DNA of 64,000 nt, taken from NCBI GenBank assembly GCA_030748635.1, contig JASMLP010000112.1:1422-65421 (forward strand), in the 5' to 3' direction. This stretch comes from Planctomycetota bacterium. Its GTDB lineage: Bacteria > Planctomycetota > JACQVV01 > JASMLP01. Shown here piece by piece: positions 8,421-57,381 of this stretch. Position numbers and translations under genes: made by a program. Below the pieces are notes generated by a model. The model saw only the letters and a program-made list of their open reading frames with translations. It ran no database searches and was not told the DNA's origin. How positions within the stretch are numbered: the first letter of the stretch is position 1; the number at the start of each line of letters is the position of its first letter.

Positions 8421-8448
8421 CCTTACTTGACAGGAGAAATCAAATATC

Positions 8449-9147
8449 ATGAAACGACGAATCATCGTCATCGGACTGGGAACATTGGGAAAAGAAGTGG
8501 CCTTGTTCCTAGCCAACAACGGAGCCGAAGTCTTGGCGATCGACAAGCAAGAAGAAGAAGTGACACGGATCGCCAAGGAAGTGAGCCAAGTGGCCATCGT
8601 GGACGGAACCGACATGAAAACTCTTCGCTCCCTCAACGCCCAGGAGTACGACGGCGCGGTGGTCGCCATCGGAGATAACATCCAGTCGAGCATCATGACG
8701 ACCCTGGTCCTGAAGGACCATTTACGCATTCCTGAGGTTTTTGCCCGAGCTGTCAACGAAGATCACGGACAGATCCTGGACAAGGTCGGAGCGGACACGG
8801 TTTTCCACGTCGAACGCGAAATGGGCCGTCGGGTCGGTTCAAGTATCCTTCGCCCCCACTTTCGAGACTATTTTGGTGTGTCCGGTGATCTTGCAGTCAT
8901 CGAAATCAACGCGGAAGAATCCATGATCGGCAAAACTATGGCCGAGCTGGACTTCAAGAACCGATACAAAGCGTACTGCCTCGCCCTTCGCCGTGGCCGG
9001 GCCGGAGAAAAAGAGGAACTCGGTGGCCTAAAAACCCAGGAAACCGGTCGCGATCGGGTCGTGAATATGCCCGAAGCGGATACTCGCATCCAAGCGGACG
9101 ATGTCCTGGTTCTGATCGGCATGGATCGCGATCTCCAAAGCCTCTGA
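8449..9147 (+). CDS. ktrA: KtrA/TrkA-family RCK regulatory subunit
   Basis: IIVIGLGTLG Rossmann motif, VVAIGD, C-terminal RCK_C; follows ktrB. Confidence 0.92.
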   Translation: MKRRIIVIGLGTLGKEVALFLANNGAEVLAIDKQEEEVTRIAKEVSQVAIVDGTDMKTLRSLNAQEYDGAVVAIGDNIQSSIMTTLVLKDHLRIPEVFARAVNEDHGQILDKVGADTVFHVEREMGRRVGSSILRPHFRDYFGVSGDLAVIEINAEESMIGKTMAELDFKNRYKAYCLALRRGRAGEKEELGGLKTQETGRDRVVNMPEADTRIQADDVLVLIGMDRDLQSL

Positions 9148-41935: not shown

Positions 41936-42009
41936 GCCTACCTCGAGGTATTTGAGGCGACGTCACATCCGGTTGTCGAAGAGAAAAGGGTCGACGCGCA
42001 ACCAGTTCA

Positions 42010-45000
42010 TCATCCCCCACCCTGGAAACGGACAATTTCCTCTTCGAACCAGGTCCGATCGAAGTACCAATGGACCGGCCCGAGATCCCTCCCTCTTTCA
42101 GCCCACTCCACTGCACGAGCCTTCTGGCCGAGAACAAAATAAGCTCGAGCTCCCACTCCCCACGCCAACGAAACCGTTTTGTCATACCGCAACGCCTGAG
42201 AGACCAGGTCGAGCGCACTCTCCGGATTCAGGTGCGGGTTTTCCTCGTCGGTCGCGAGCACCAGCGCTTGAAGACAAAGCCCTCGTTTGTCCTGTGGACT
42301 ATGACGATGTCCCTCCCGAAACGCTTTCAAAGCGAGCCCCCATCGCTTCTGAAGAAATCGGACCATTCCCACCCCATAAAATGCGAACGAAACATTTTGC
42401 CCGCCGATCCAAATCGCCTTCTCGAACGCACCGACCGCCTTCTCGAATTGCTTCGATTTCATCCAGGTCTTTCCCAGATGCAACCAGGCAAAAAAGTCCT
42501 CTCGATCCGTCTCCAAAACACGTTTGAAGTCCCTCTCTGCATCCTCGAAACGCCCCATCATTTCAAAGGTCAATCCCCTGAAGTAATAGGACTTACGTTC
42601 ATAGGGCTTACGTACGATTTCCTTCTCGAAATGGAGCAGAGCCCGTTCATAGTTTTTCTGATAGAGATGGTACAGACCCAACACAACCTGCAAACGAGGA
42701 ATTGAACCGCCTCCCGCGGACTCGATCAGTCCCAAGAAGCCGCGTAAGCGGGAGAGAAAAACCTCCAATTCTTCCCGAGTGATTCCAAACCGTTGCGCGT
42801 CGACTCGTTGCTGAATACCAAACTCGAGGAAACTGCCCACAATATCTGGATCGATTTCATAGGCTTCATTCAGATCGCTAAACGCTTCTTCAAACCCTTT
42901 TTGCCTCCCTTCGGCCAGGGCGAGAAGCATGCGGGCCAACCCACGATTAATCCAGCTGTAAACATGATTGGGGTCGGCTTCAATCGATCTCGAATAATCA
43001 GAAATGGCAGTCCGCAGATTCTGATCCGCCGAACTCACATGATGTTTGTGATAGAAAAGAAAAAGATTTCCCCGAACGAAATAGGCCCGGGACCGCTTTG
43101 CATCCAAAGCCAGGGCATCGTTAAGATGCAACCGTATCTGCTCCAACACCTTCATCTGAGGAGAAGAAAGTGTTGTCTCACTAAGATGCTTCCAGTACAG
43201 GGATTGCGCGCATAGGAAGTGAGATCTCGAGTCTTCAGACTGGAATCGCGTCGCGACTCGAAGATGGTCTGAATACGCCTTTGCGTATTTTTTCATGTCC
43301 ATATATATCCTTCCACGAATCCTGTACGCCTCCCAGTAAAATCCATCCAATTCAATCGACTTGGCCAACCAGCCTAGCGCCTCTTCTCTCTGTCCAGTCG
43401 AAGCCAGAGCTCGAGCCATTCCGCAATAGCCTTTCGGGTCTTCTGGTTTCAATTCGATCGCCTTGGCAAACTCCTTTCTTGCCGATTCGAATTCAAACCT
43501 TTCTAGGCTTGTTTCTCCGAGCGCGAGATGAGTCTGAAAGCGAGTATCCTCCAGACCTTCTTCAGAAGAAGTGGAAGAGGATTCTGTACCGCCAGACTCC
43601 GAAGAGCCTGGAGATGTATCCAAATCCATTTCACGGTCGAACCCAAAAAAGTAATAGGACACCCCAAAGAGGGCCATCAACAAGAAGACAGCCAGACCAG
43701 GAATCAACCCGGGAGCGGACCGAACAATACGCCTCCTCCATCCAGGAAGACGTGCCTCTGGGTCCTTGCCACGCGTCACACTGGACAGATCCTCCGCCAA
43801 CGCCCTGGCGCTGCGGTATCGATTCCGTGGGGCTTTTTCAATCGCCTTGAGAACAATCGCCGAAAGCGACTTGGTCACATCTGGATTCTTGCGATGGGGT
43901 GGACGAGGATCCACATGAAGAATCTGGTGATACACCTCGATGGGATTCTCTCCGGGAAATGGATAGTCCCCGGTAAGTCCTTGATAAAGAATCACCCCCA
44001 AGCTCCAAACATCACTGCGACGATCAATGGCCGCCACCCGCCCCAGGACCTGCTCCGGCGGCATATAGTAGGGAGTTCCTATATCCACTCCAGACTGGGA
44101 AAGATCTTGCCCCTCCAGATTTTTCGCCAGACCGAAATCCGTAATTCTTGGCGTACCGGTTCCATCCAAGATCACATTTGAAGGGGTCAGATCTCGATGA
44201 ATGATTCCTCTGCGATGCGCATGATCGATAGCTCTTGCAACTTCCTCGATACGCGCCACCAGTTGACTCACATCCAAAGAGTGATCCTCAAAATGTTCGC
44301 CTAAAGATCGTCCCTCGACATAATCCATCACAATATAGTTTTGCCCTGCATGCACGCCCACATCATGAATCTTCACGATATGTGGATGCGACAACCGCGC
44401 CGTGGCTCTCGCCTCTCGACGAAAACGCTCCACGGATTCGCTAGAAAGGCTACGATCCGAGTGAAGAATCTTGATCGCCACAGTTCGATCCAACGCGCTG
44501 TGTTGCGCACGAAACACCGTCCCGGAACTTCCCGAGGCGATCTCTTCAATCAGTTCGTAATCACCAACAAACCCTGAATTCTTGAACGAGTTGACCCCCT
44601 GCCGATCCTCACTCCAGTCACTGACCACACTCTCAGCCGACCGAGAGATCTTTCCGGTCTCTTCGACCACGAGATCCTCACCACACCGTCGGCACTCGTA
44701 AACCCGATCTGCCCGATATCTACGCGAATTAAATCTTTTGCCACAAGCCGAACAGACCAGCACCACCCCTTGCCCAACCTGCAAAACTTTCAACAGATCC
44801 GGAACACGAAGGACCCCTTCTCGTATCAGAACCTGAGCCAACCGGACCGTTTGCCCCTTTGGACTCCTTTCCTTTTGGACCCTCAATGCGTGAGCTAGGT
44901 TATCCGCCGAAAGGACCCCCATCCGAACCGCTCGCCGCCCAATCTCGAGATCTTCCGCGCGCTCCGCTTCTTTTTCGCCCTTTCGGAGTAAATTCTTTTT

Positions 45001-45186
45001 GCGTAATTTCTGAAGCCGAGCCAACTGCTCTGGAGTAATCAATCCCCGCTTGAGGAAAAGATCCCCCAGAGGAGTTTGTTCGCCATCTTCCTGGAATTTG
45101 CGACATTCAGTCACATCCTCCTTGGTAACGTAACCCAGGCGAACCGCCAGGCGTCCGATCAAAATCTCTCCGGCAGATTCGGTCAT
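42010..45186 (-). CDS. Receptor-type Ser/Thr kinase: MshEN-like repeats, Zn ribbon, kinase, TM, TPRs
   Basis: VAIK, HRDLTPSN, DFG, GTPYYMPPE; CSAC/CRRC; TM LAVFLLMALFGVSYYFF; TPRs. Confidence 0.92.
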   Translation of the reverse strand: MTESAGEILIGRLAVRLGYVTKEDVTECRKFQEDGEQTPLGDLFLKRGLITPEQLARLQKLRKKNLLRKGEKEAERAEDLEIGRRAVRMGVLSADNLAHALRVQKERSPKGQTVRLAQVLIREGVLRVPDLLKVLQVGQGVVLVCSACGKRFNSRRYRADRVYECRRCGEDLVVEETGKISRSAESVVSDWSEDRQGVNSFKNSGFVGDYELIEEIASGSSGTVFRAQHSALDRTVAIKILHSDRSLSSESVERFRREARATARLSHPHIVKIHDVGVHAGQNYIVMDYVEGRSLGEHFEDHSLDVSQLVARIEEVARAIDHAHRRGIIHRDLTPSNVILDGTGTPRITDFGLAKNLEGQDLSQSGVDIGTPYYMPPEQVLGRVAAIDRRSDVWSLGVILYQGLTGDYPFPGENPIEVYHQILHVDPRPPHRKNPDVTKSLSAIVLKAIEKAPRNRYRSARALAEDLSSVTRGKDPEARLPGWRRRIVRSAPGLIPGLAVFLLMALFGVSYYFFGFDREMDLDTSPGSSESGGTESSSTSSEEGLEDTRFQTHLALGETSLERFEFESARKEFAKAIELKPEDPKGYCGMARALASTGQREEALGWLAKSIELDGFYWEAYRIRGRIYMDMKKYAKAYSDHLRVATRFQSEDSRSHFLCAQSLYWKHLSETTLSSPQMKVLEQIRLHLNDALALDAKRSRAYFVRGNLFLFYHKHHVSSADQNLRTAISDYSRSIEADPNHVYSWINRGLARMLLALAEGRQKGFEEAFSDLNEAYEIDPDIVGSFLEFGIQQRVDAQRFGITREELEVFLSRLRGFLGLIESAGGGSIPRLQVVLGLYHLYQKNYERALLHFEKEIVRKPYERKSYYFRGLTFEMMGRFEDAERDFKRVLETDREDFFAWLHLGKTWMKSKQFEKAVGAFEKAIWIGGQNVSFAFYGVGMVRFLQKRWGLALKAFREGHRHSPQDKRGLCLQALVLATDEENPHLNPESALDLVSQALRYDKTVSLAWGVGARAYFVLGQKARAVEWAERGRDLGPVHWYFDRTWFEEEIVRFQGGG

Positions 45187-45192
45187 ATGGAT

Positions 45193-46467
45193 CTACCGAA
45201 AGAAGAGAAGGCGGAGAAGAAGTAAAACCAAGATGGCCAGAAGGGGGAAGAGAACCCAGCGAAAAAGTGGCCAGCCGAGTAACACATAAAATTCGTTTTT
45301 AAGTGTTACCAGAACCCGATCCCCTTCGCTCTGAAGCTCCAGAATTTCGTAGTGATTACGAGCTTTTGTCAGATCTCTCACCAACGCCTGGGCAGTGGGA
45401 TAGCGACTGTCGGGATCCTTCTCCAGACAACGAGCGACTAATAAACCGATTTGGGGTGGCAAGTCAGGACGCATCGCCGACAACGGTTTAGGCGGTACAT
45501 TGAGTGCCAACTCGATCGTCTCATAGGGTGTCTCCCCACGAAAAGGAGGGATCCCCGCCAGCATTTCATACAACAAAACACCGAGGCTGTAGAGATCCGA
45601 TCGCGCTTCAGCCTCTCCCCCCCCTAACTGCTCCGGTGACATGTACTCGACCGTCCCGGTCATAGCTTCCGCCCCGGTTTCCTCCACCGTTTCACCCAAC
45701 ATCCGAGCCAAACCGAAATGAGCCAGCATCACCCGCCAGGGGGTCACTTGAACGTTTTCAGGTTTGACATCTTGATGCAACACTCCACGTTCATGTGCGT
45801 AGTGAAGAGCCCTGGCACAGGAAAGAGCGATCCCAAGGGCATTTCGAACTTCCAGCGGCTCCCCGGGCTCCTGATATTCAGAGAGGGTCATCGCCTCTTC
45901 GATCCATTCCATCGTGAAGTAGAGCAAAGACTCATCCGAGCCGAAATCGAGAATTGTGGGAATACTGGCATGATTGAGAGTGGCCAAAGTTTTCAGGGAG
46001 GAGAGGAAGCGCTCCCGGACCTCAGGGTGGCCTCGAACAAGACTGGGAGGGAGAAGCTTCAATGCCACCGAACGACGAAGCGGAATCTGCTGTACCTGAT
46101 AGAACTCCCCCACACTTCCATGCTCGATCGAAGACTCGATGCGGTAGTCAGCCAGGATCCCATCCAGTCGCTTCCGAAGAAGATCGGCCCCAAAGGAGAA
46201 CCATGTCAGACCGATTCGGAAGTGATCCCCCGGCTCGACCGCGACTTTTCCGGCAATCTTGGATCCATTGAGACTGGTTCCATTTTTGGAGTCCAGATCT
46301 TCGAGCACATACCCGCCATCACCGCAAAGGATTCGACAGTGACGACGACTCGCTTTTTCATCCGCAATCGGCACCTCGACCTGGGGGTCACGACCGATCG
46401 TTCCACTTTCCTCGATAACAAAGGTGGAGCCTTTACCCTCACCCCGTTCGATCCGGAGCAGCGGCAT
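45193..46467 (-). CDS. FHA-domain kinase-like protein (probable pseudokinase) with C-terminal TM
   Basis: FHA IGRD..ASRRH..SKNGT; kinase VALK, HQDVKPEN, HFG in place of DFG, GTVEYMSPE. Confidence 0.88.
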   Translation of the reverse strand: MPLLRIERGEGKGSTFVIEESGTIGRDPQVEVPIADEKASRRHCRILCGDGGYVLEDLDSKNGTSLNGSKIAGKVAVEPGDHFRIGLTWFSFGADLLRKRLDGILADYRIESSIEHGSVGEFYQVQQIPLRRSVALKLLPPSLVRGHPEVRERFLSSLKTLATLNHASIPTILDFGSDESLLYFTMEWIEEAMTLSEYQEPGEPLEVRNALGIALSCARALHYAHERGVLHQDVKPENVQVTPWRVMLAHFGLARMLGETVEETGAEAMTGTVEYMSPEQLGGGEAEARSDLYSLGVLLYEMLAGIPPFRGETPYETIELALNVPPKPLSAMRPDLPPQIGLLVARCLEKDPDSRYPTAQALVRDLTKARNHYEILELQSEGDRVLVTLKNEFYVLLGWPLFRWVLFPLLAILVLLLLRLLFFR

Positions 46468-46472
46468 ACAAC

Positions 46473-47573
46473 TTAGCCCTCGCTCAAAATCGAAGCCGAC
46501 TTAACCCGAACGAGAAAGCCTCGTAAATCGTCGTAAGCCTCGCCGCTACGCTCGAACTCCTCGAACGGCAAGACCTCGGGAGCCCCCGAGTCCATGGACG
46601 AAAAAAGCACGAGAATTCCCGCGAGCAGGATCAACGCGGCCAAAACCAACGGCCCTGCCAGTTCCCTGATGTTCAGTTGCTCGCGAACCATAAATTCAAA
46701 TCGGGAAAGACTTTGGTCTTCTAATCGACTCGAGAGGAAAACACGACACCGATCCAGATCATCCATCAACTCTTCATCATTCTGATAGCGATTCACCCGA
46801 TCGGGACGCATACACTTATCGATAATCTTTACGATTGGAGACGGAACATCGGGGGCCAGTTCCAGAATCGCCCGAGGCTGCTCTTCGCGAGGCAGTTTTT
46901 TCAGATTCATTCGCTGCAGAATCATCTCCTTTTTCGAAGAAGCCCGGAACGGCTTGACTCCCGCGAACAAATTGTACATGACAGCCCCAAGACTGAAGAT
47001 GTCACTTCGCAGGTCCACCTTTTCTCCCCGCGCCTGCTCTGGACTCATGAAAGGGGCGCTTCCGACGATAACTCCAACCCGAGTAATGTCACGCCCCTCA
47101 TCCATTTTGGCTATCCCAAAATCGAGCATGTGCGCATCCCCTTCAGGATCGATCATGATGTTCGAGGGCTTGATATCACGGTGAACAATTCCATGCCGAT
47201 GGGCCAAGGCCATGGCACTCGCCAGTTGAGTAAAAATCCGCAACTTCCCCTCGAGAGTCGACGCCCCCCCCTCGATCACCTCATCCAGAGGAGCCCCCTC
47301 CACATACTGCATGACGAAGTAGATCAGCGCGTCTTGAGAATCGATATCGTAAATCGTCGCGATATGAGGGTGAAACAACTTGGCCGCCGACCTCGCCTCG
47401 GTCTTGAAGCGCTTCACCTTCGCATCATCCTCCTGAGCTTTTTCTGGAGGCAAAACTTTCAAGGCAACCGTTCGCCCCAGAACATCTTGCTTCGCCCGGA
47501 ATACCGCTCCCATCGAACCGTGCCCAATGAGTTCTTCGATTTCATACTTTCCCAGGCGCCGAGGGATTTGCAT
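46473..47573 (-). CDS. Membrane-anchored Ser/Thr kinase
   Basis: GHGSMG, VALK, HRDIKPSN, DFG, GSAPFMSPE; one TM. Confidence 0.93.
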   Translation of the reverse strand: MQIPRRLGKYEIEELIGHGSMGAVFRAKQDVLGRTVALKVLPPEKAQEDDAKVKRFKTEARSAAKLFHPHIATIYDIDSQDALIYFVMQYVEGAPLDEVIEGGASTLEGKLRIFTQLASAMALAHRHGIVHRDIKPSNIMIDPEGDAHMLDFGIAKMDEGRDITRVGVIVGSAPFMSPEQARGEKVDLRSDIFSLGAVMYNLFAGVKPFRASSKKEMILQRMNLKKLPREEQPRAILELAPDVPSPIVKIIDKCMRPDRVNRYQNDEELMDDLDRCRVFLSSRLEDQSLSRFEFMVREQLNIRELAGPLVLAALILLAGILVLFSSMDSGAPEVLPFEEFERSGEAYDDLRGFLVRVKSASILSEG

Positions 47574-47596
47574 CAGATGGTGGCTCCAGCCTTCAT

Positions 47597-49480
47597 TTAC
47601 TTCCCCTCCAGCAATTTAACCGCCTTCTTCCAACTATCATTGCGTCGGGAAAGGTAGGTTTTGATCAAACTACACCCGACCCGGTCATTCTCGTCGAATC
47701 GACCTCCGTACTTGTGATTTTGGGCCGTCGTCACGATTTCAGAGGCCACCTTCTCCAATTCGGTAGCGAACATGCGCTTCACTGATCCACGAGACATCTC
47801 ATACTCAACCGTCTTTTCGTAACTGCGAAGGGCCTTCTCGTAGCTTTGCTTACGTAGGTGATCCACGGTTTCCTGGAAAAATTTCTGGCGCAAATCCTCG
47901 ATCGAACGCTCCACCTCCCGACGGATTTCTCGCGCCTTGGTCACATAGGTACTTGATGAGGATTTGTCGTGTTTGAGGATCGTATCGCATTCCATCAGAA
48001 TCCTCTTGTACCGAAGCCCCTCGACAGGAGTTGTTGATCGGCGATAAGCGTCCATATCCCCAGAAGCTCTGGAATAGGCCTCTCTGACAACCTCATACTT
48101 TTTCAGCAAACCTTTAAGCCTCGACACCGCTTCCGGGTGATCCCGAGAATCTTCCATCAATCGTTCCATATCTCGAATCGCTTTATCCACTCGTCCCCGC
48201 AAGTAGACCTCCTCGATCCTCTCTACCTTTTCCTGGATCTGAATACGAACCAGAAGTCGGTTAGCTTCCGCATAGTAGAGACTTTCACTATCGATCAATC
48301 GAAAAGACGTTGTCGCCTTGGGATATTCTCCCCGCCCGTACGCCTGCTCTCCCTCCTGAAACTTCTGAAAGTCATCCAGATGGCGAACATACTTGCGCAA
48401 CAAACGTTCTAGGTCTCGATTCTCTCGGGTAAGCGAATACGCCTGAGCGCGCTTGATATTCTCGACTGAAACCACCCAGAATGCCCCGCTCTCCTTGAAG
48501 TCTCCGGACTGAATGGCATCGACAGCTAAACTTTCGCTCGTCTTCGCGTCTTCCTTGGCATTTCGAATCAATTTCTCGGAAAGATCAATGAACTGCCGAC
48601 GTACCAGGCGAAAGATCTCGGTATCTCCATATCGCCTTTCAGCCCGCTTCAGATCGGCATACTTCTGTTCGTCGTCAGCCTTTTCGAGAAAGAAACTGGA
48701 GATCAATTCACAGCACTCTCCATTTTCACGTGTCTTCTTGACGATATCGGACAAAAAGGTCTTGTACAGCTTGCTCTTGGGAGCGACCGGGATCAATTTC
48801 CCATAAGCTTCAACCAACTGTTCCCACGGGAAATTGGTTGGATCACTATTTTCCAATCGCAAATTGCAGATCTGGAGAAAGAGGTTAGGAGCCGGGTATT
48901 TATTCCCGTAAAGCTTCTTGGCTTTACGAAACGTTGTAAAAGAGGTTTCCAGGTCCTGATCTAGATACTGTTGAAGCCCCTTCTCCATCAAAACTTCGTA
49001 GCGAACCACCCGACCGGGAGCTTCCGGGCCACTTTCGGCACCTCCCGCGGCAAAAAGCAAAATAGTCAGAACAACCGCTAGACCGCCGCCTACGCTTCCG
49101 ATCAGGGTCCAGTTCACGGACCGCGGCACATCGAAATCGAAACGGAGGTGAATCTTCCCCAGGAGAATCCGGTCCTTTTCCTGAAGGCGCTTTTTGACCA
49201 CTCTCTCCCCGTTCACGAAGGTCCCGTTGGTACTGCCAAGATCCTTGAGATACCAACCATCTTCCTGCCGAATAAATTCGCAATGAAAGCTAGAAATACC
49301 GTCTGTTTCGAAAACGAAGTGATTGGCATCGTTGTTTCCAGCGGTATAGCGTTCACCTGTCATACGATGAACCGTCCGTGAAGCCCCACCAAGAACGGTG
49401 AGAACGCCACCGGGAATAGCCGATGTCGGTTCTTCCGGGCCGATTCCTACCCCTGGCACCGGTCTCCCTGAAATCGCCAT
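47597..49480 (-). CDS. FHA-TM protein with TPR-like extracytoplasmic region
   Basis: FHA ISSFH...DLGSTNGTFVNG; TM; helical repeats. Confidence 0.85.
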   Translation of the reverse strand: MAISGRPVPGVGIGPEEPTSAIPGGVLTVLGGASRTVHRMTGERYTAGNNDANHFVFETDGISSFHCEFIRQEDGWYLKDLGSTNGTFVNGERVVKKRLQEKDRILLGKIHLRFDFDVPRSVNWTLIGSVGGGLAVVLTILLFAAGGAESGPEAPGRVVRYEVLMEKGLQQYLDQDLETSFTTFRKAKKLYGNKYPAPNLFLQICNLRLENSDPTNFPWEQLVEAYGKLIPVAPKSKLYKTFLSDIVKKTRENGECCELISSFFLEKADDEQKYADLKRAERRYGDTEIFRLVRRQFIDLSEKLIRNAKEDAKTSESLAVDAIQSGDFKESGAFWVVSVENIKRAQAYSLTRENRDLERLLRKYVRHLDDFQKFQEGEQAYGRGEYPKATTSFRLIDSESLYYAEANRLLVRIQIQEKVERIEEVYLRGRVDKAIRDMERLMEDSRDHPEAVSRLKGLLKKYEVVREAYSRASGDMDAYRRSTTPVEGLRYKRILMECDTILKHDKSSSSTYVTKAREIRREVERSIEDLRQKFFQETVDHLRKQSYEKALRSYEKTVEYEMSRGSVKRMFATELEKVASEIVTTAQNHKYGGRFDENDRVGCSLIKTYLSRRNDSWKKAVKLLEGK

Positions 49481-51084
49481 CAGTCCATATCCTCCCCACC
49501 CAGCGAATCTCGCTGAACGGGCTGTTTGTACATCTTGTACTTTGTGGACTTACGACGCAAATCGTACTCCGTTTTCTTGATCAGATACCGCTTCTCGTAG
49601 TCGCTCCGACGTAATCGACACATCTCCTCGAGAAGACGAAGAGCCTCGGTAGGATTCTTCTCCTCTCCAGCAAATAGTTTATGACGTTTTTCGAATTGAC
49701 GGTCGAGATCGTCCCCGACTTTTTCCAGAAAAGGCTTGGCCTTCCGATACTCCTCAAGAAATTGACCAAATGGAATGGTTCGCAAGAGGTCGATGGCTTG
49801 TCGGCAATTCTGGTAAGACTCCCGATAATTATCCAGATTACTCCGACGATCCTCATATTTCCTGGTGGCATCCGCAAAAAGACGTCGAACTTCTTTCAAG
49901 GTCTCTTCCTTGCTGGTCTTTTCAGCCCGGACGCGAGGCTTCGGCGCAATCTTACAAAGGATATACCACCGATTCTCATTCTTATAATCGATGGTAATGA
50001 TCGTATTTTCTCGAATCCGAGGTTCGAGCAAAATATGAAATACGTAACGATTCCGGCGCTTGTCGAGAGACTTGGCTATCCATGTGGCCCCAAGCGCGTC
50101 CTTGTCCAGAACATTCAACAAACGGCTTTCGGAAACCATTAAATCCGCACCTTGATCGACAGCCACCACCAGGACCTTGTTTCTGCCAACCACCAGTTTT
50201 TCTTCTGTACGAAAACTTTTCTTGGAAAAGAATGTCTCCTTGATATTCCAAACGAAAAATATCGCAAAGAGGAGCAGCCCTCCCCCCATCGCATAGTGAA
50301 TGGGTCGCAGCTGGCTCAGTCCTGCTCCCCCGGCAACAAGAACATCATCCATGTTCAACAAATCGGTCCCGCCAAGATCCGACGCATCTCGGCGAACACG
50401 CATTTCTCCATCAAGATCCGCCCCCCCACTATCGGATCCGAGGTTCTGCTGTTCGAGTTGATTCAGATCTATCTGTTCGGGCTGCAGGAAGCTCCCCATA
50501 TCGAGTAGTTCGGTTCCCGGTTCAGCGTCTCCCGAAGAAACGGGAGCTACATTTTTTCTCCTGGACTTCTTTTTCGACTTCGAACGCTGCCGACCCCAAT
50601 CTGGGGGCGGTTCAGGAGCGTCGAGCAGCTGCTCGATCGGAACCACTTCGGTACCTCCATCCCCGGTGTCGATCAAAGCCATATCCGGCCCCGCTCCCTG
50701 CAGAAGACCTTCCATATCGACCAACTGAGTACCATCATCCACATCCTCGGGATCGCCGCTGGAATCGACGCCCTCGATCTCCAGAACTTCGAAACGCATA
50801 CGGAACCCACCGATTTTGATTTCATCATCTGTTTCGAGATGTTTTTCGGTCACGGGTTCACCGTTGACTCGAGGGCGATTTTTTGCCCCCAAGTCGGTGA
50901 GCACATAACCTCCGGCACGGTAAGAAATTTTCGCATGTTTTCGAGAGACCTTGGATCCCTCCAGGACGATATCGTTCGTATAAACACGCCCCAGAGAAAA
51001 TGTCATGTCCGACAATTCGTAGGAGGTCCCTTTCTCCTCGCCAGTGAGCATCGTAATCCTAGCGCGAGGCATCTGAGACCTCAC
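49480..51084 (-). CDS. FHA-TM protein with acidic Thr-repeat linker
   Basis: FHA LGR...VSRKH; four GTx[LV][LV] repeats; TM GGGLLLFAIFFVW; start may be 51072. Confidence 0.85.
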   Translation of the reverse strand: MRSQMPRARITMLTGEEKGTSYELSDMTFSLGRVYTNDIVLEGSKVSRKHAKISYRAGGYVLTDLGAKNRPRVNGEPVTEKHLETDDEIKIGGFRMRFEVLEIEGVDSSGDPEDVDDGTQLVDMEGLLQGAGPDMALIDTGDGGTEVVPIEQLLDAPEPPPDWGRQRSKSKKKSRRKNVAPVSSGDAEPGTELLDMGSFLQPEQIDLNQLEQQNLGSDSGGADLDGEMRVRRDASDLGGTDLLNMDDVLVAGGAGLSQLRPIHYAMGGGLLLFAIFFVWNIKETFFSKKSFRTEEKLVVGRNKVLVVAVDQGADLMVSESRLLNVLDKDALGATWIAKSLDKRRNRYVFHILLEPRIRENTIITIDYKNENRWYILCKIAPKPRVRAEKTSKEETLKEVRRLFADATRKYEDRRSNLDNYRESYQNCRQAIDLLRTIPFGQFLEEYRKAKPFLEKVGDDLDRQFEKRHKLFAGEEKNPTEALRLLEEMCRLRRSDYEKRYLIKKTEYDLRRKSTKYKMYKQPVQRDSLGGEDMD

Positions 51085-51442
51085 ATGCTAAAGGATCTTC
51101 TATCACCAGCCGATCTCCTCTTTGAACAGACACACGTGAAAGGCACCCCTCCGGTAATTCGATAGTTCCATAGGCCCCCACACATCCGGCAAATCGCCAC
51201 GGTCGCAATCGGTGGACCACTCGGCAAACACGTAAATCTCGAGCGACGAACAGAACATCGATCGCAAAACGCATGAAGAACATATGGATACTACTGCATG
51301 GACGGAGATACAAGCCCCCACCTTCTTCAATCGAGTTCCGCCCTAACAAACCTCGAGTACGTTCCAGAAACGTTTCCGCGATCTCCAGAGATTCTGCCAG
51401 GACAACGCCCTCGATCGTCCGCAATCGCACAAGACGCCCCAC
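51059..51442 (-). CDS. DUF192-family protein
   Basis: AETFLERTRGLLGR, CSSIHMFFMRFAIDVLF, TIELPEG. Confidence 0.9.
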   Translation of the reverse strand: MGRLVRLRTIEGVVLAESLEIAETFLERTRGLLGRNSIEEGGGLYLRPCSSIHMFFMRFAIDVLFVARDLRVCRVVHRLRPWRFAGCVGAYGTIELPEGCLSRVSVQRGDRLVIEDPLACEVSDASR

Positions 51443-51446
51443 AACC

Positions 51447-52406
51447 TCAACCCCACCCCATATGTTCGATCAGCATCGGGGAAAACAAGACGATAAAAAC
51501 CGTGGGCATGATAAAGCAAGTCAACGGTAACAGCATTTTGACCGGCGCTTCCCCCGCTAACTTTTCCGCTCTCTGAAAACGTTTGACTCGCATAACCTCT
51601 GACTGTACCCGAAGAATCGGACCGATCGGACTCCCCAGATCATCCGCCTGGATCAGATTATTGCTGAAACTGATCACATCCTCCACCAGGGTGCGATCGG
51701 CCAGTTCCTGGAGCGCTTTTTTACGACTCATACCGTACCGAATTTGCCGGAGCATTTCCCCAAACTCTTCCGCAATAGGGGTTCCTCGCTGGCGCTCGAC
51801 AATGCGAGTTAGACCCGAAGTAAAATCCAGTCCGGCATCCAGAGCTAATGCCAGCAAATCGATAGAAAAGGGCAATTGGCGTACAATCTTTCGCTGCCGC
51901 CGGCGCACCGTGTCCCGCAGACTCAAAACCGGGAAATAATAGCCAAACGTAACGAAAATCAGAGTACACAAGGTCGCTGGAATGATTTGCCAGAAGGCAA
52001 CGCTCAATGCGCCCAAAATCACGCTGCTGAGAAACATGGTAGCTAGCATCTCATCTGGAGTGAACACATCCGATTTGCCCGCGGCTGTCAATTGCCGGCC
52101 TAGGTAAGTTCGAGTCCGCCCCAAAGCGAGCCGAAATCGACCCAAAATACCAGCTTGCTGCAACCGTGAATCTCCGTAGATCCCCAGTCCCTCATCTAAA
52201 GCGATATCCGGCACCTTGGCGATATAGTGAGCAACCACCTGGATGAACGGTAGTAGCATCCGGAAGAAAGGGCTGGTCGTGACCGTTTCCACATCCTTTT
52301 CGATATTCACTTCCGCGACGGTCTGCCGTGCCCAGACATTCGCCGCGAAGAAGAAAAGTCCCGCGCTGAGTCCCAGCAAAAGACAATAGAACAAAACTTC
52401 ACCCAT
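51447..52406 (-). CDS. tadC: Tad pilus platform protein TadC (T2SS F family)
   Basis: LPFSIDLLALALDAGLDF, G.SRKKAL, QADDLGSPIG..LR, RAEKLAGEAPVKMLLPL. Confidence 0.9.
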   Translation of the reverse strand: MGEVLFYCLLLGLSAGLFFFAANVWARQTVAEVNIEKDVETVTTSPFFRMLLPFIQVVAHYIAKVPDIALDEGLGIYGDSRLQQAGILGRFRLALGRTRTYLGRQLTAAGKSDVFTPDEMLATMFLSSVILGALSVAFWQIIPATLCTLIFVTFGYYFPVLSLRDTVRRRQRKIVRQLPFSIDLLALALDAGLDFTSGLTRIVERQRGTPIAEEFGEMLRQIRYGMSRKKALQELADRTLVEDVISFSNNLIQADDLGSPIGPILRVQSEVMRVKRFQRAEKLAGEAPVKMLLPLTCFIMPTVFIVLFSPMLIEHMGWG

Positions 52407-52440
52407 ATCGGTTCTCCGTGACTCCCTTCACACAACCATC

Positions 52441-53433
52441 TCAGATATCGATTCCAACAATTTTCTGTATCATCCAGTAACCGATAAAATCGAGCAAAAA
52501 CACGATCGTGATGATGACCCAACCGGCGGTAGTATGAAACAAAGGATCCATGAATTCAGGGTTGATGTACGACAACGCCACGACCAACAACGCGGGGAGA
52601 AGAGCGACCACGATGGCTTGAAACCGCCCCTGCCCCGTCATGGAACCGATCTTACCTTCGATCCGATTTCGCTCCCTGATGATATTTTCCAGATTGGAGA
52701 ATATTGCGGGCAAGTTCCCTCCCACCTTCCCGGCGATATGGACAGCGGTCGCCACGAGAGCAAGATCTTCAGAAGGAAGACGTTCGTACAAGCTATCGAC
52801 CGCTTCTTCCATGCTCGACCCCAACCGTATTTCTTGCAAAAGGATTCTCACCTCTTGCTTCATCGGATTGATCGACTCATTTGCGATTTGCTCCCAACTC
52901 TTGGGTAAGGAAAATCCCGCTTTGAGATTATTCGATAGCCCCTGCAGTGCGGGCAAAAGTTGTTGCCTGAATTTCGTCTCCCGATTCTTTTTCAAACGCT
53001 TGAGCATGGCACGAGGCGCTCCCGCGGCACAAAGCCCAAACACCCCCGGAAGGAGCAAGGCCCCCCCCATCGCCATCGACAGTCCTACCGTTACCAAAAA
53101 GAAGAGTAGCGAGGAGAGATAGATCAGAACCTGCGGAGGAATGGTCAAAAACATCGCCTCCATCGACCGCCCCGCATCTTCGAGGTATCTCTCCTCATAA
53201 GAGTCCCACCCGCGGGAGAATAGCACGACCCCAAGAGACGTAAAGACCACCACCGAGAGGAACACAATCGCCAGGACCATTCCCTCGAAAGCGTCAAAAC
53301 CGGAAGCGGGATCCACCCCGGAATTCATGGACGTCATCTGGGCCAAAACCCAAACAGGACAACTCGTCGGGAGGTTCAAAAGGACCTCCCGAAGAATAAC
53401 CGTGAAGAATTTCGGCAAAATGTCATGTGCCAA
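52441..53433 (-). CDS. tadB: Tad pilus platform protein TadB
   Basis: KFRQQL..AL, LKAGFSL, VGGNL, IRER, MTGQGR; start uncertain. Confidence 0.9.
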   Translation of the reverse strand: MAHDILPKFFTVILREVLLNLPTSCPVWVLAQMTSMNSGVDPASGFDAFEGMVLAIVFLSVVVFTSLGVVLFSRGWDSYEERYLEDAGRSMEAMFLTIPPQVLIYLSSLLFFLVTVGLSMAMGGALLLPGVFGLCAAGAPRAMLKRLKKNRETKFRQQLLPALQGLSNNLKAGFSLPKSWEQIANESINPMKQEVRILLQEIRLGSSMEEAVDSLYERLPSEDLALVATAVHIAGKVGGNLPAIFSNLENIIRERNRIEGKIGSMTGQGRFQAIVVALLPALLVVALSYINPEFMDPLFHTTAGWVIITIVFLLDFIGYWMIQKIVGIDI

Positions 53434-55102
53434 AAATCCCCATATCGACCCCCACTCCTCTTTGGTTCATCTCATGAACAAAGTCGGGAATATGTCCTGT
53501 GGGCAAGTATTCTCCCAAAATTTTCCCATCCTCATCCATTCCGGTTTCCTGAAACCGGAAGATATCCTGTAGAAGAAACTCTCCATCATCCAGAGGCGCG
53601 ATCTCGGTAATATAAGTCACTTTCCGGGCGCCATCTTTGAGGCGAGTCTGCTGAACGACCAGATCAACCGCGCTGGATATTTGGGTTCGAATTGCCTGTG
53701 ATGGCAAATCCATTCCGGACATCAGGACCAGAGTTTCCAGTCGTCCCATGGCATCGACGGGAGTGTTGGCATGAAGAGTCGTCATGCTTCCATCATGACC
53801 GGTATTCATCGCCTGCAACATATCCAAAGCTTCGCCCCCACGACATTCGCCGACCATGATCCGATCCGGTCGCATCCGCAAAGAATTTCTCACCAGGTCA
53901 CGAATTTCGACAGCCCCTTCTCCCTCGAGGTTGGGCGGCTTGGTCTCGAGATTCACGACATGATCCTGGGGTAACTGCAACTCCGCCACATCCTCGACAG
54001 TAACGATCCGATCTCCTTCCGGAATATAGGATCCCAGCACATTGAGTAGCGTGGTCTTCCCCGAACCGGTACCACCGGAAATAATAATGTTCTTGTGCTC
54101 ACGAACGATCAGTTCGAGAAAGCTAGCCATAGCTGGACTGAGAGATCCGAAGCTGATCAGGCCTTCCATCGAAAGTCGATTTTCAGGAAACTTCCGGATG
54201 GTCAAACTCGGCCCACTGACCGCAAGCGGTGAAATCACCGCATTCACTCGTGAGCCATCCTTCAAACGGGCATCCACCATCGGACTGGATTCATTGATAA
54301 GTCTCCCGATAGGAGCAATGATTCGCTGGATCGCCTGAACGACTTGCTGATCTTCGATGAACCTCTTCTCGGACAGTTGTAATCTTCCGTCACGCTCGAT
54401 GTAGATTCGATCGTAACGATTGACCATGATCTCGGTCACCGAAGAGTCACTCAAAAGATCTTCCAGCGGACCCAACCCCAGAGCTTCATCCAGGATTTCT
54501 CGAATGAGCCGCCTGCGAGAAATATTTTTCGGAATTTTTTTCCGAATCCCCTTGATGATCTCTTCGACCACCTCCCGGGTTTTTTCTCGAGCCTCTTCTT
54601 CACTGACCTGCGTAAAATCCATATGTCGCAATCGCCGATCGCCCAGCAATTGCTCATGAATTTCCTTTTTGATCTCGACCGGGATCGCCCCTCCCTCTTC
54701 CGATACACTTCGCTCGGGCGCAGTCTGCTCCACCGCCACGCCTTCATCCGCGAGCGCTCGCTTCAGGTCTTCCTGGTGATCCAGATCACTTTCAGTCTGT
54801 TTCCGGTCGGCCTTGTACTGGATCTCGAATTCACCGATCTGAATTCGGGTTCCGTGATCGAGCACCGTATCGGACTCGATACGCGCACCATCCACATAGG
54901 TACCGTTGGAACTCCCCATGTCCCGAATCCGAAACTTCTTATCCGGCGGATAGAAATAGAGGGTGCAATGAGAACTACTAATTCCCGGACGGGCCAATAC
55001 GAGATCGTTTTCGGGACTCTTCCCGATCGTGAACTTATTGACAGTCAGATCGATTTTTCGAATCCGACCATCAACCTTGTTTCGAATCAGAAGCCGGGGC
55101 AT
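53423..55102 (-). CDS. tadA: TadA/CpaF pilus ATPase with N-terminal FHA domain
   Basis: GLGPLEDLL, EIMVN, DARLKDGSRVN, SGGTGSGKTT, EDVAEL, LRMRPDRIMVGECRG, MNTGHDG; FHA in the first ~100 aa. Confidence 0.95.
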   Translation of the reverse strand: MPRLLIRNKVDGRIRKIDLTVNKFTIGKSPENDLVLARPGISSSHCTLYFYPPDKKFRIRDMGSSNGTYVDGARIESDTVLDHGTRIQIGEFEIQYKADRKQTESDLDHQEDLKRALADEGVAVEQTAPERSVSEEGGAIPVEIKKEIHEQLLGDRRLRHMDFTQVSEEEAREKTREVVEEIIKGIRKKIPKNISRRRLIREILDEALGLGPLEDLLSDSSVTEIMVNRYDRIYIERDGRLQLSEKRFIEDQQVVQAIQRIIAPIGRLINESSPMVDARLKDGSRVNAVISPLAVSGPSLTIRKFPENRLSMEGLISFGSLSPAMASFLELIVREHKNIIISGGTGSGKTTLLNVLGSYIPEGDRIVTVEDVAELQLPQDHVVNLETKPPNLEGEGAVEIRDLVRNSLRMRPDRIMVGECRGGEALDMLQAMNTGHDGSMTTLHANTPVDAMGRLETLVLMSGMDLPSQAIRTQISSAVDLVVQQTRLKDGARKVTYITEIAPLDDGEFLLQDIFRFQETGMDEDGKILGEYLPTGHIPDFVHEMNQRGVGVDMGIFGT

Positions 55103-55160
55103 GATTGCCTTCAGAATCTGGACTTATCGGGGAACAACCACAGGGAACACAAGAATTGTA

Positions 55161-55190
55161 ATTATAGATCCAGACACGACTTGCTGACAA
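55161..55190 (-). promoter_or_regulatory. Candidate sigma70 promoter of the tad-FHA-kinase operon
   Basis: Minus strand TTGTCA-N18-TATAAT, about 60 nt upstream of the tadA ATG. Confidence 0.6.
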
Positions 55191-55233
55191 GTTGCGAACG
55201 GATTTCCGATGCTTCCCCCCACCGTTTCAAAAT

Positions 55234-56520
55234 CTACTTATCGGCCATGTTATAGGTGTACTTATTGCCCTCGATATCCCGAACAATCGCTTTGTAACTG
55301 TTGGTCATTTTGGGCTTACCTTCCGAATCCATGGCCGGAACCGGAACGCGACGCTTAACCATCTTGCCCTGATCATCGATAGCCATCTCCGCATCGGGAT
55401 GCTTTTCCTTGAACTTAACCAGTCCTTCTGCAGCCCATGCCTGCTTTTTCCCACCATCATAGGAGTATTTCGTCTCCGTAACCTCAGCCATAACCGGAAC
55501 CGGAAAACTCTCGACCTCTATCAAGGTGTACTTGGTGGTCATGTCCCAGTTGCGTTTTTCACTCCCATCCACTTTCTGGCGAACGTTCTTCTTGCCGATC
55601 CGACTATTTTTGCGCAAAAAGAAGCGCTTAGACACTTTGATGTCTCCCTTGAAACGCTTGGTCACCATGATGGTTGCCATGCCGCTGGTATAGCTCAAGA
55701 ACTCCAGCTCGACATTATCGGGCACCTTTTTGGAGACGCTCTCAGTGGACTCACTTCGACGCAACGACGTCGTCTGACGAGCCTCTTCCAGCTTTTCTTC
55801 ATCCCAATCGGAAGGAACCCGGGCCTTTTCCTTTTCGATCAAGGCCCCAAGAGCACACTTCCAGATACTTCCCCCCTGCGCCTCGCGGGCTTGGGTCAAT
55901 ACCGAAACGGTATAGTGATAAACCTCATTGGCACGTACATCTTCGTCTCGATACTGCGTTTCTTCACCTAGCAAAACGCGAAACAGATTGGACTCCTGAG
56001 CGCCACCTTTTCCAGCCCCCTCCTGTTTTCCCGTCCAGCGGTAAATAACGAAACCGTAGGTATCTGAAACTTTTTTGACCTTCCCATCAATCTCCGTTTC
56101 GCTCGATGGAGCGGTCCAGGAGACATCCAGGAACTTGCCTTTTTCATCGGGGGTGACTGTGAGTTCGGAAGGAGCGATCACCACCTGCTTTTCTGGTGGC
56201 ACTTCGATTTCGAAAACCTTGTCAGGATCGAAAGGTTTGACGGTAAAAAATGCCCAGGAAGCGTTCAGATCTGCGCCCCGCACTTTTTCCCAGCGTTTCG
56301 AAACCTCGGATGAAATTTTCCCAACGGCACCGATGTCTGGAGCCTTCTTCTGACGAGCCGAATCGATCCCTTTTTTCATCGATTCAATCTCATTCAAGGT
56401 TTTCCCGACCCCAGCGTCCCCACCACCAAAGAAGAAAACGTAGATAAACGTTAACACCGAAGCTCCCAGAAGAAGCTTTTCTCCATGTTCCTTCAACAGG
56501 TCCTTGGGATCCATGGCCAT
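55234..56520 (-). CDS. Membrane-anchored Lys-rich protein with fibronectin-III-like segment
   Basis: N-terminal TM; APSELTV...VSWTAP...GFVIYR...YRDEDV...YHYTVS pattern. Confidence 0.75.
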   Translation of the reverse strand: MAMDPKDLLKEHGEKLLLGASVLTFIYVFFFGGGDAGVGKTLNEIESMKKGIDSARQKKAPDIGAVGKISSEVSKRWEKVRGADLNASWAFFTVKPFDPDKVFEIEVPPEKQVVIAPSELTVTPDEKGKFLDVSWTAPSSETEIDGKVKKVSDTYGFVIYRWTGKQEGAGKGGAQESNLFRVLLGEETQYRDEDVRANEVYHYTVSVLTQAREAQGGSIWKCALGALIEKEKARVPSDWDEEKLEEARQTTSLRRSESTESVSKKVPDNVELEFLSYTSGMATIMVTKRFKGDIKVSKRFFLRKNSRIGKKNVRQKVDGSEKRNWDMTTKYTLIEVESFPVPVMAEVTETKYSYDGGKKQAWAAEGLVKFKEKHPDAEMAIDDQGKMVKRRVPVPAMDSEGKPKMTNSYKAIVRDIEGNKYTYNMADK

Positions 56521-56785
56521 GACAAATATCTCCGAGAAATCTCGTTTTCAGACGACTGTCAGATTCTTGATTACAAATGCGAACAGGAAGCCGATTATTG
56601 TACCGATTCATAACGTCAAGTCGACCTAGAGGATATAGTTTCATCCTCCAGGAACCCGAAATCGGCGTGGACTGGACGTAGGCATTTCATGCCGGAATCG
56701 CCTAGACTCCATGATCATGACTCCCGAAAACACCTTCTGGAGCTGTTTCCCACTCGCCAAGAGAAAGATACCGCCACCGACTCGA

Positions 56786-57259
56786 TCAGGAGTTGACGGT
56801 AAAAAGGTCCTCTTCTCTCCGCTGAATAAGAGAGCAAACCTCTTCCACAGATACAGCTTCCATCAATCCCTCCAGGAAGGAGGGTTCTGAAAAAAGCAGC
56901 GAGATCCGGGAGAGCAGATCCAGATAACGCCCGTGATTCTCCGGGTGATGGGAAATACAGAAGAACACATGCGTCTTGCTCCCGTCGGGGGCTCCAAAAT
57001 CGACTCCGTCCCGAGAGATTCCCAGCGAAACGACAAAACCGGGAGAGGCTGAGGTCCGAGCATGCGGGAGTGCGAACCGAGGCAGTATCGCAGTGGAACC
57101 CTTGTCCTCCCGATGAATCATGGCTTTCATGATTTCCCCAGCATCCGCCTCTTCACTCCCCTGCAACAGGGTCTGAACAAGTTCTGCGACGACACCGTCA
57201 CGATCTGCAGCCTGAAGATCGACCTGAATCCGATCCGCCGACAAGAGATCCTGAATCAT
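56786..57259 (-). CDS. PTS EIIA domain protein (fructose/nitrogen-regulatory type)
   Basis: REDKGSTA...ALPHAR (phospho-His), GVDFGAPDG; start at MIQDLL after GGAGG. Confidence 0.9.
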   Translation of the reverse strand: MIQDLLSADRIQVDLQAADRDGVVAELVQTLLQGSEEADAGEIMKAMIHREDKGSTAILPRFALPHARTSASPGFVVSLGISRDGVDFGAPDGSKTHVFFCISHHPENHGRYLDLLSRISLLFSEPSFLEGLMEAVSVEEVCSLIQRREEDLFTVNS

Positions 57260-57381
57260 TCCCTTCCTCCACCGTAGATTTCTACATGAATGGGTTCTCG
57301 TCCTAGCACAGGCCCGATCTCTCCGGCCCATTTCAACAGCTTCATTTTGCTCATCCCGCTTCCAAAAGCCAGAGGGTTCAT

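Follow-up and report, generated by a model that had tools for sequence, protein, structure and literature searches.

The operon described here fills positions 42010-55102 of a 64,000-nucleotide stretch of a planctomycete genome (Planctomycetota bacterium, assembly GCA_030748635.1, contig JASMLP010000112.1, positions 1,422 to 65,421 of the forward strand; the whole stretch is called the window). With a probability somewhat above even (about 0.55), it is read as the cytoplasmic and inner-membrane half of a Tad (type IVc, Flp) pilus system whose motor is gated by phosphothreonine (pThr), and which resembles the Kil system of Myxococcus in build without being its orthologue. The nine genes, numbered g1 to g9 from the motor end, encode a secretion ATPase of the TadA/CpaF type with a fused forkhead-associated (FHA) domain, the platform proteins TadB and TadC, a DUF192 protein, two FHA proteins with a transmembrane (TM) segment, a Hanks kinase, an FHA-pseudokinase and a kinase with tetratricopeptide repeats (TPR). 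Among the observations that point to this reading are a repeated threonine motif in g5, the co-occurrence of this motif with kinases encoded in the operon, and the pThr-binding residues kept in the FHA domains of g5 and g8.

Threonine motif, operon kinases and FHA domains

The source genome (G000; 4.25 Mb in 217 contigs, 93.7% complete, the window being approximately the whole of contig C112) was compared with fetched planctomycete loci, in a first set of 13 and a later set of 20. Loci were annotated with jackhmmer profiles seeded with G000 proteins and applied to six-frame open reading frames (ORFs), some of which are over-extended or spurious in high-GC loci. Two relatives recur below: G001, which is the nearest relative and, of three genomes of the same order, the only one with a readable locus, and G033, which belongs to another family of the phylum.

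The disordered linker of g5 carries four copies of the pattern G-T-[QED]-x-[VL]-[DNP]-[MI], which are proposed as kinase targets and FHA-docking sites: GTQLVDM (residue 118), GTEVVPI (144), GTELLDM (190) and GTDLLNM (239). Not one of 20000 shuffles attained the observed count. Among the 16545 open frames of at least 100 amino acids (aa) in G000, the motif was present once in 15 and more than once in g5 only, so that the threonine repeats pointed out in an initial, model-made annotation of the window were confirmed as a four-copy motif unique in the genome. The g5 proteins of G000, G001 and G033 contain four, three and three copies, respectively, and these are the three genomes in which kinases were seen within the operon; this co-occurrence was observed directly. 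Written more narrowly, as G-T-[QED]-x-[VL]-[DN]-M, the motif is likewise given with 3-4 copies per g5 for these three genomes alone. The motif is absent from the other 71 of the 74 non-TadA FHA ORFs, including those of all 20 later loci, which are kinase-less. In loci of the kinase-less kind the g5 linkers are mostly 30-90 aa long, and one family has a long linker without the motif. Many FHA domains prefer a hydrophobic residue at position +3 from the phosphorylated threonine; all ten copies have V, L or I there, in keeping with this preference.

The first kinase, g7, retains GxGxxG, VALK, HRDIKPSN and DFG and is predicted from these canonical catalytic motifs to be active. Orthologues of it occupy the corresponding place in the operons of G001 (54% identity) and G033 (48.5%). 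In g8, HQD is kept and DFG is replaced by HFG; the orthologue in G001 (50% identity over residues 1-423, in the same order after g7) has HGS and NFA, and the g8 family is for this reason regarded as a pseudokinase, as had been annotated initially. When the searches were reversed, the g7 orthologues of G001 and G033 and the g8 orthologue of G001 picked g7 or g8 first, with wide margins, among about 134-140 kinase-domain matches in G000. In G033 the g7 orthologue is followed by two kinase domains, neither of them orthologous to g8 or g9. A metagenome scan with g8 yielded 80 loci, which apart from one 1.5-kb fragment (96% identity over 46 residues) held generic kinases of at most 38% identity; no further kinase-bearing copies of the operon were found there.

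The last gene, g9, encodes a kinase with HRDLTPSN and DFG, in which all catalytic residues are present except the Lys of HRDLKPxN, replaced by Thr. From the single TM segment, the C-terminal TPR region should be periplasmic. The N-terminus gave no Pfam match at E<=1; residues 81-141 align marginally with residues 25-82 of PilB (E 0.018), and the Zn ribbon scored 22.7 bits, below the Pfam cut-off of 25.4. Of the initially annotated succession of MshEN-like domain, Zn ribbon, kinase, TM and TPR, the last three were upheld and the first two are weak. Two adjacent giant kinase-TPR genes of similar architecture (1426 and 1399 aa) are located on the minus strand at 21098-25378 and 25384-29583, and a further kinase gene at 10115-11176; the window contains six kinase genes.

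FHA domains that bind pThr carry Gly-Arg, Ser-x-x-His and Asn (Asn-Gly) in their binding loops. The full set was found in g8 (GR/SRRH/NG) and in g5 (GR/SRKH/N), and the g5 residues concerned (G32, R33, S47, H50 and N69) are invariant or nearly so across 12 orthologues. The corresponding loops read GK/SSSH/NGT in g1 and GN/SSFH/NGT in g6. An AlphaFold2 (AF2) model of g5 has pLDDT values above 85 for the FHA domain and for residues 390-520, a disordered segment at 106-256, a helix at 261-285 and a helical bundle at 392-519. A Foldseek search with the whole-chain model, which is dominated by the FHA domain, returned the FHA domains of GarA and OdhI as top matches (33-36% identity, root-mean-square deviation about 1 Å). 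A homologue search with g5 gave only g5 itself and a partial G001 protein; the candidate pool was flooded by word matches to FHA domains, and the search says little on the reach of the family. In g6, described initially as an FHA-TM-TPR protein, the FHA domain and the TM segment were recovered, and for TPR there was one sub-threshold match (E 0.0067), which makes this part of the description weak. Joint structure prediction for the two proteins g5 and g6, covering their membrane and periplasmic regions, gave scores of 0.12 and 0.29 against a mark of 0.32, which carry no weight either way on binding.

We infer the following course, including which kinase acts on which substrate, which FHA domain binds, what signal is sensed and in which direction the switch works. 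The kinase g7, perhaps together with the receptor kinase g9 after periplasmic sensing through its TPR region, would phosphorylate the threonines of the four g5 linker motifs. The resulting pThr-x-x-(V/L) sites would be read by FHA domains, most likely those of g8 and g5 and with less certainty those of TadA and g6. This reading would recruit or release the TadA hexamer at the TadB/TadC platform, whereby pilus assembly would be gated, and the state could be reset by one of three PP2C phosphatases encoded elsewhere in the genome. A PP2C gene at C81:2983-3843, which lies 3 kb from a gene for a 937-aa PilQ-like protein of TPR-STN-secretin build (6805-9618) and is surrounded by genes for TPR proteins, was weighed as the reset phosphatase; nothing ties it to the Tad system.

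Operon layout, second gene cluster and distribution

The nine ORFs lie on the minus strand, and their junctions range from a 26-nt overlap to a 34-nt gap, in agreement with the initial annotation of nine co-oriented genes with overlaps or gaps below 35 nt. TadA and TadB overlap by 11 nt, and DUF192 and g5 by 26 nt (longest ORF; the database copy of g5 begins 11 residues downstream of this start). TadB and TadC are separated by 34 nt and TadC and DUF192 by 4 nt. Further downstream, g5 and g6 overlap by 1 nt, and gaps of 23, 5 and 6 nt follow between g6 and g7, g7 and g8, and g8 and g9. The FHA, TadA, TadB, TadC, DUF192 and kinase calls and the TPR call of g9 in that annotation agree with Pfam. 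All features are collated in Table 1.

Table 1. Features of the window operon, its upstream region and the second gene cluster.
Feature	Positions	Strand	Product or description	Basis or remark
g1	53423..55102	-	FHA-TadA/CpaF secretion ATPase, N-terminal FHA, 559 aa	Pfam FHA 1.3e-18, T2SSE 5.6e-64
g2	52441..53433	-	TadB-type platform protein, single T2SSF domain, 330 aa	Pfam T2SSF 2.4e-14
g3	51447..52406	-	TadC-type platform protein, single T2SSF domain, 319 aa	Pfam T2SSF 2.5e-15; collinear with relatives
g4	51059..51442	-	DUF192 protein, 127 aa, frequent accessory of Tad loci	Pfam DUF192 3.3e-18
g5	49480..51084	-	FHA, disordered linker, TM, periplasmic beta region and helical bundle, 534 aa	Pfam FHA; AF2 model
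g5 linker	50350..50733	-	Four threonine motifs	Pattern given in the text
g6	47597..49480	-	FHA, TM (about residues 122-140), periplasmic helical domain, 627 aa	Pfam FHA 2.5e-18
g7	46473..47573	-	Hanks Ser/Thr kinase, C-terminal membrane anchor, 366 aa	Pkinase 3.8e-48
g8	45193..46467	-	FHA, degenerate kinase, C-terminal TM, 424 aa	Pfam FHA and Pkinase
g9	42010..45186	-	N-terminal helical repeats, weak Zn ribbon, Hanks kinase, TM, C-terminal TPR of about 500 aa; 1058 aa
Promoter	55161..55190	-	Sigma-70-like match TTGTCA-18-TATAAT (11/12) in the 131-nt gap upstream of tadA	Motif scan
g0	55234..56520	-	428 aa, N-terminal TM, no Pfam family	Upstream of tadA; membership doubtful
Second cluster	Contig C163		Same-direction genes for Peptidase_A24, Flp-like, TadE, TadG-like, TadE, an unknown protein and CpaB, followed by a convergent oxidoreductase gene

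The best solved relative of g1 is Caulobacter CpaF (E 2e-119). Its top NCBIfam match, TIGR03819, scored 326.6 bits (cut-off 373). In the ATPase alignment A1, the residues of Walker A, Walker B and the His box show no variation. The pair g2 and g3 is the sole pair of single-domain T2SSF proteins found in the assembly, the other T2SSF matches being two-domain PilC/GspF types. DUF192 profile matches were obtained in 18 of 34 FHA-TadA loci versus 16 of 59 plain TadA loci. The promoter site is the top match of the scanned region and is weak, since the scan gave 10 sites in total versus 9.7 in shuffles. Upstream of it, g0 occupies the place of CpaB in relatives; a tblastn search of 13 related loci gave no match to it, its Atlas matches were limited to planctomycete hypothetical proteins and an fn3-like fold, and its membership being doubtful, it is not counted as part of the system.

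Genome-wide family searches, supplemented with profiles built for this work, placed no secretin, prepilin peptidase, Flp pilin or CpaB on C112, as initially stated for the window. The pilin, peptidase and CpaB, expected elsewhere in the genome, were located on contig C163, and candidate secretins were also found. The cluster on C163 lacks ATPase and platform genes. It encodes a TadV-type prepilin peptidase (Peptidase_A24, 206 aa, 3.9e-18), a 59-aa Flp-like ORF (Flp_Fap 21.8 bits, cut-off 32.2) with a G/MTEY site and a hydrophobic helix that is 52% identical to a G001 ORF, a 590-aa TadG-like protein with a Tad (TadE/G-like) domain that is 44% identical to its G001 counterpart, and the only CpaB found in the genome (RcpC 1.1e-13, NCBIfam TIGR03177 passed). 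A further Flp-like match is present on contig C1. The unknown protein between TadE and CpaB (362 aa, C163:15587-16675, plus strand) belongs to no Pfam family and gave only hypothetical clusters in the Atlas; it is kept at the same position in G001 (41% identity), G013 and G012 and could be an additional part of the Tad systems of planctomycetes.

In G001 all the C163 genes are collinear and located directly upstream of FHA-TadA, TadB, TadC, DUF192 and g5 (34-60% identity overall, 34-55% for the C163 genes), and a second G001 contig overlaps the first and continues with g6, g7 and g8. Because the locus is contiguous in G001, the two G000 clusters are regarded as halves of one ancestral locus that was broken between cpaB and tadA, and the split as recent. 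Judged by gene order, the window operon and the C163 cluster are one Tad system, the only one found in this organism, and the initial proposal of a Tad machine with a split locus, an FHA domain on its ATPase and further FHA proteins is supported. No TadZ/CpaE was detected among the scanned ORFs of the window or of C163; a genome-wide search for it was not made. About 10 kb downstream of g6-g7-g8 in G001, two more T2SSE-type ATPase ORFs of 363 and 533 aa were noted (locus L142, contig C319, 1-2700, minus strand).

Five secretins were found in the genome, on contigs C186, C81, C181, C143 and C150. That on C186 was set aside as PilQ-type, with PilM adjacent; that on C81, with the same TPR-STN-secretin build, was set aside as a type IVa pilus (T4aP) or type II secretion system (T2SS) type. 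The secretin on C181, in a T2SS/T4P cluster, was set aside in the same class together with a T2SSF gene broken across C181 and C187. The two that remain, on C143 (330 aa, partial N domain, at a contig end) and C150 (625 aa, 5'-open), match secretins of Tad loci at 101 and 87 bits, respectively.

Independent assembly of each of two seawater metagenome runs, which may themselves be the source sample, gave a 24.9-kb contig that covers positions 40000-57332; contig stitching therefore does not account for the operon or for its upstream boundary. The proteins most similar to g1 number about 120, are of FHA+T2SSE build and share 48-61% identity with it, and every record among them that names an organism is from Planctomycetes/Planctomycetota, as expected for the planctomycete host proposed at the outset.

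ATPases of the FHA-TadA type were present, at E<=1e-140, in 41 of 251 sampled Planctomycetota genomes and 36 of 198 genera. Where contigs were long enough for gene order to be judged, the 13 first and 20 later loci share the order CpaB, FHA-TadA, TadB, TadC, (DUF192), an FHA-TM protein of about 400 aa and an FHA(-FHA)-TM protein of about 640-830 aa, with one or two FHA-TM proteins per locus. Kinases within the operon are rare and were seen in G000, G001 and G033 only. In G013 two kinases flank the locus, in which neither g5 nor tadC was detected. Of 80 loci from many phyla obtained by scanning GTDB species genomes, 21 carry an FHA-fused TadA by profile, including a Planctomycetia metagenome-assembled genome (MAG), Lentisphaerota, Sumerlaeota, Myxococcota (with Citreicoccus inhibens, Myxococcaceae, among them) and several Proteobacteria. 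Kinases were counted in 7 of 34 FHA-TadA loci versus 2 of 59 plain TadA loci, a contrast that is overstated, related genomes not being independent.

The ATPase tree was computed by quick search (LG+G4) from 115 ATPase domains with the FHA domain excluded; T2SSE matches of fewer than 250 residues and identical duplicates were dropped, and the window ATPase is represented by its duplicate L005. It falls in a clade of 17 rows, all from Planctomycetota (SH-aLRT 97), as sister to G001. The Citreicoccus ATPase, which stands in for M. xanthus KilF, belongs to a separate clade of 13 rows with Proteobacteria (SH-aLRT 95), and the backbone between these clades is unresolved. Planctomycetota also carry ordinary CpaF without FHA, in other clades. 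In an approximately unbiased (AU) test on a subset of 78 rows (all FHA rows and non-FHA rows chosen by hand via 37 name prefixes, the FHA-TadA group having been defined after the first tree was seen), the tree in which all 40 FHA-TadAs were held together had a better likelihood than the free quick search (p-AU 0.759), so that a single origin of the FHA-TadA fusion is not rejected. G000 encodes another TadA-like ATPase with a fused FHA domain, an orphan of 595 aa, at C160:3963-5750 (minus strand) beside a DnaJ-domain gene. In the tree it joins (SH-aLRT 99) the second ATPases of FHA-Tad loci in a Myxococcota MAG, a Deltaproteobacteria MAG and one further bacterium, and may be a second motor of the same machine class.

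Other genes around the operon and elsewhere in the assembly were recorded as follows. A convergent neighbour (39923-41935, plus strand) encodes a protein with a degenerate FHA domain, two GAF domains and a GGDEF diguanylate cyclase; its pThr-binding FHA residues are not conserved, among the other fetched loci GGDEF genes were found in L038 and L056 alone, and this neighbourhood is not conserved. At 60654-61631 (plus strand), downstream of genes for a small TPR protein and a metallophosphoesterase, lies a gene for a protein with a DacZ_P sensor and a DAC domain, probably a c-di-AMP cyclase. Contig C187 carries, at 805-4596 (minus strand), a gene for a 1263-aa protein with four tandem FHA domains, convergent with the two-domain T2SSF gene broken across C181/C187.

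Alternative readings

The best-surviving alternative, which is considered rather unlikely, is that the kinases are mere neighbours with other targets and that the FHA domains form a phospho-independent structural ring or adaptor around TadBC, as do YscD/PrgH-type proteins of type III secretion systems. Several observations weigh against gating by pThr and speak for this alternative. No kinase lies in the operon in any of the 20 later planctomycete loci (in one of them a kinase gene runs divergently upstream) or in the majority of the first 13, while the FHA core is intact; since most loci are of this kind, the FHA core works without a kinase encoded beside it, and in most relatives the kinases may act in trans or the FHA domains may be largely structural. 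The linkage of kinases to tadABC, assumed in the initial annotation, was accordingly found for g7 and g8 in G001 and for g7 in G033 and not in most other planctomycete loci. The phosphate-binding Arg is replaced by Lys in the FHA domain of TadA and by Asn in that of g6, and all FHA domains of the operon also match Pfam Yop-YscD_cpl. With about 139 kinase-domain matches in the genome and the six kinase genes of the window, a kinase adjacent by chance is not rare. The position of g9 is not conserved even in G001, where a cyclophilin-TPR protein and other genes are found instead; its kinase-TPR architecture has two more copies in the window, and the role of periplasmic TPR sensor initially assigned to it is weakened.

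Other points count against pThr gating itself. The motif pattern was derived from the g5 sequence of the window, and the co-occurrence of motif and kinases rests on about two lineages, because G000 and G001 are close kin and G033 alone is independent. No PP2C gene is present in the window, the three PP2C genes lying elsewhere in the genome, and none of the five secretins of the genome is linked to the Tad system.

Several features speak against the structural alternative. Orthologues of g7 stand at the same position in three genomes and those of g8 in two, and the rare threonine motif of g5 is confined to those three genomes. All pThr-binding residues are retained in g5 and g8, nearly without variation among the g5 orthologues, and g5 to g9 are joined by junctions of 1-23 nt.

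An improbable alternative is that the system, seen here through its genes, is a Kil-type apparatus, that is, a Tad-like machine assembled on cell contact for contact-dependent killing. Like Kil, as far as the latter is described in the accessible text of the eLife article, it has an ATPase with a fused FHA domain, a number of FHA proteins and a locus in two parts. The Citreicoccus locus encodes an FHA protein, a peptidase, a secretin, an FHA-ATPase and an FHA-FHA-TM protein, an order that agrees with the description of Kil cluster 1 in that text (PMC8460266). The last of these proteins is at the position of KilD. A profile of 19 planctomycete g6-type domains downstream of the TM segment was aligned by hhalign with five KilD-position proteins (Citreicoccus, a Myxococcota MAG, Lentisphaeraceae, Sumerlaeota and one further bacterium) with 91% probability (E 9e-7, 295 columns), while plain BLASTP between g6 and these proteins detects the FHA parts only. 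From this alignment, g6 is a probable homologue of the KilD-position protein, the domains being helical and possibly repeat-like and the assignment hence not certain. The single clade of 40 FHA-TadAs that the AU test did not reject and the short 330-aa secretin on C143 also fit a Kil-type apparatus.

Against it stand the ATPase clades, that of the window being restricted to Planctomycetota and that of Citreicoccus including Acidithiobacillus, Thauera and other genera. To our knowledge, no predation has been reported for these genera, and FHA-TadA alone is therefore no mark of predation. A TadG-like pseudopilin is present, whereas the accessible description of Kil has no TadG, and the split is not an inherited Kil feature, since the locus is contiguous in G001. 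Of the initial proposal of a Kil-like or new Tad variant, the Kil-like build was thus sustained and the grouping with the Kil ATPase was not.

It is very improbable that the motor is a decaying remnant left after the split, or that it powers a structure of another kind than a Flp pilus, such as a pseudopilus for secretion or DNA uptake. In favour of this, no secretin could be assigned to the system, and the fetched planctomycete FHA-Tad loci encode none, whereas in FHA-Tad loci of other phyla the genes for CpaB and a secretin immediately precede that for the ATPase. Against it, none of the nine ORFs is disrupted and their catalytic residues are conserved, the Flp, TadV, TadE and TadG-like genes on C163 are intact, and the core is conserved over many genera.

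Beyond a pThr-gated pilus motor in this organism, a wider reading is offered tentatively. FHA-Tad loci could be one old, cross-phylum class of signal-gated Tad machines of which Kil is one branch, characterised by an FHA-fused TadA and by FHA-TM-periplasmic partners, with g6 as the KilD-like partner. The window operon would then encode the whole signalling chain in cis, from receptor kinase, membrane kinase and pseudokinase-FHA adaptor to a scaffold with several pThr sites and the FHA-ATPase, and so reveal how kinase and substrate are paired, which for Kil has yet to be shown; the machine may serve interactions in seawater, with other cells or with particles, that contact triggers. The operon sets candidate kinases, a pseudokinase-FHA adaptor, a four-motif scaffold and an FHA-ATPase side by side and so offers a testable kinase-substrate-FHA chain. 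The signalling chain of FHA-type pilus machines could become approachable with recombinant proteins despite the uncultured host. The reach of the FHA-TadA type beyond predatory delta-proteobacteria also bears on the use of FHA-Tad loci as predation markers.

Comparison with known systems

In a literature search judged mostly by titles and the openings of abstracts, nothing was found on FHA-Tad systems in Planctomycetes or on kinases that control Kil. The hallmarks of Kil given in the accessible text of its description are an FHA-fused ATPase, FHA proteins enriched in the clusters and a split locus (Seef et al., eLife 2021, PMC8460266). According to the same text, Kil lacks TadG, RcpB and TadD, and Kil-like systems appear restricted to predatory delta-proteobacteria (PMC8460266). 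In the accessible parts of this article and of a 2025 review, what the FHA proteins do in Kil is still hypothetical, and no kinase is named.

With Kil, the planctomycete system shares the FHA-fused ATPase, several FHA proteins, the distribution of genes over two clusters and an FHA-TM protein with a periplasmic helical part after the motor genes (g6 and the KilD position). It differs in the clade of its ATPase, in the TadG-like pseudopilin, in a split that is recent and falls between cpaB and tadA, with no secretin or peptidase beside the ATPase, and in the Hanks kinases and repeated threonine motif encoded in the operon. The short secretin of Kil, as described, lacks the N0 domain; the short C143 secretin has a partial N domain at a contig end and is unlinked to the Tad system.

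Canonical Tad/Cpa systems of type IVc (Caulobacter, Aggregatibacter) have in common with it CpaF/TadA, TadB/TadC, a Flp-like pilin, a TadV-type peptidase, TadE- and TadG-like proteins and CpaB, whereas the FHA domain on the ATPase, the two FHA-TM partners, the operon kinases and the absence of a secretin from the locus set the window system apart.

GarA and OdhI of Actinobacteria are FHA switches that serve as kinase substrates. Like them, g5 combines an FHA domain with threonine motifs in a disordered segment of one chain, and its FHA domain is nearest to theirs in fold. Unlike them, g5 is a membrane protein of a pilus locus with four motif copies C-terminal to the FHA domain, and no metabolic target is implied. 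Bdellovibrio DgcB (FHA-GGDEF), known here by the title of its PDB entry, was another structural match to the FHA domain of g5. One paper shows genes for FHA-domain proteins and histidine kinases in the vicinity of the Bdellovibrio tad genes; its accessible part reports no test of them.

A mechanistic analogy, not membership, connects the system with the H1 type VI secretion system (H1-T6SS). In P. aeruginosa, the threonine phosphorylation pathway of H1-T6SS comprises the kinase PpkA, Fha1 and the phosphatase PppA. This pathway is also cited in the discussion of the eLife article (PMC8460266). The two have their logic in common: a Hanks kinase anchored in the membrane with a domain outside the cytoplasm, a scaffold protein with FHA, and an envelope machine that is driven by a hexameric ATPase and has its assembly gated after translation. 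The differences are the Tad machine itself, the lack of a PP2C gene in the locus, the fusion of FHA to the ATPase and the pseudokinase-FHA fusion. The system would accordingly be described as a Tad pilus with a T6SS-style threonine phosphorylation input, built like Kil and separated from it by the clade of its ATPase and by its TadG-like protein.

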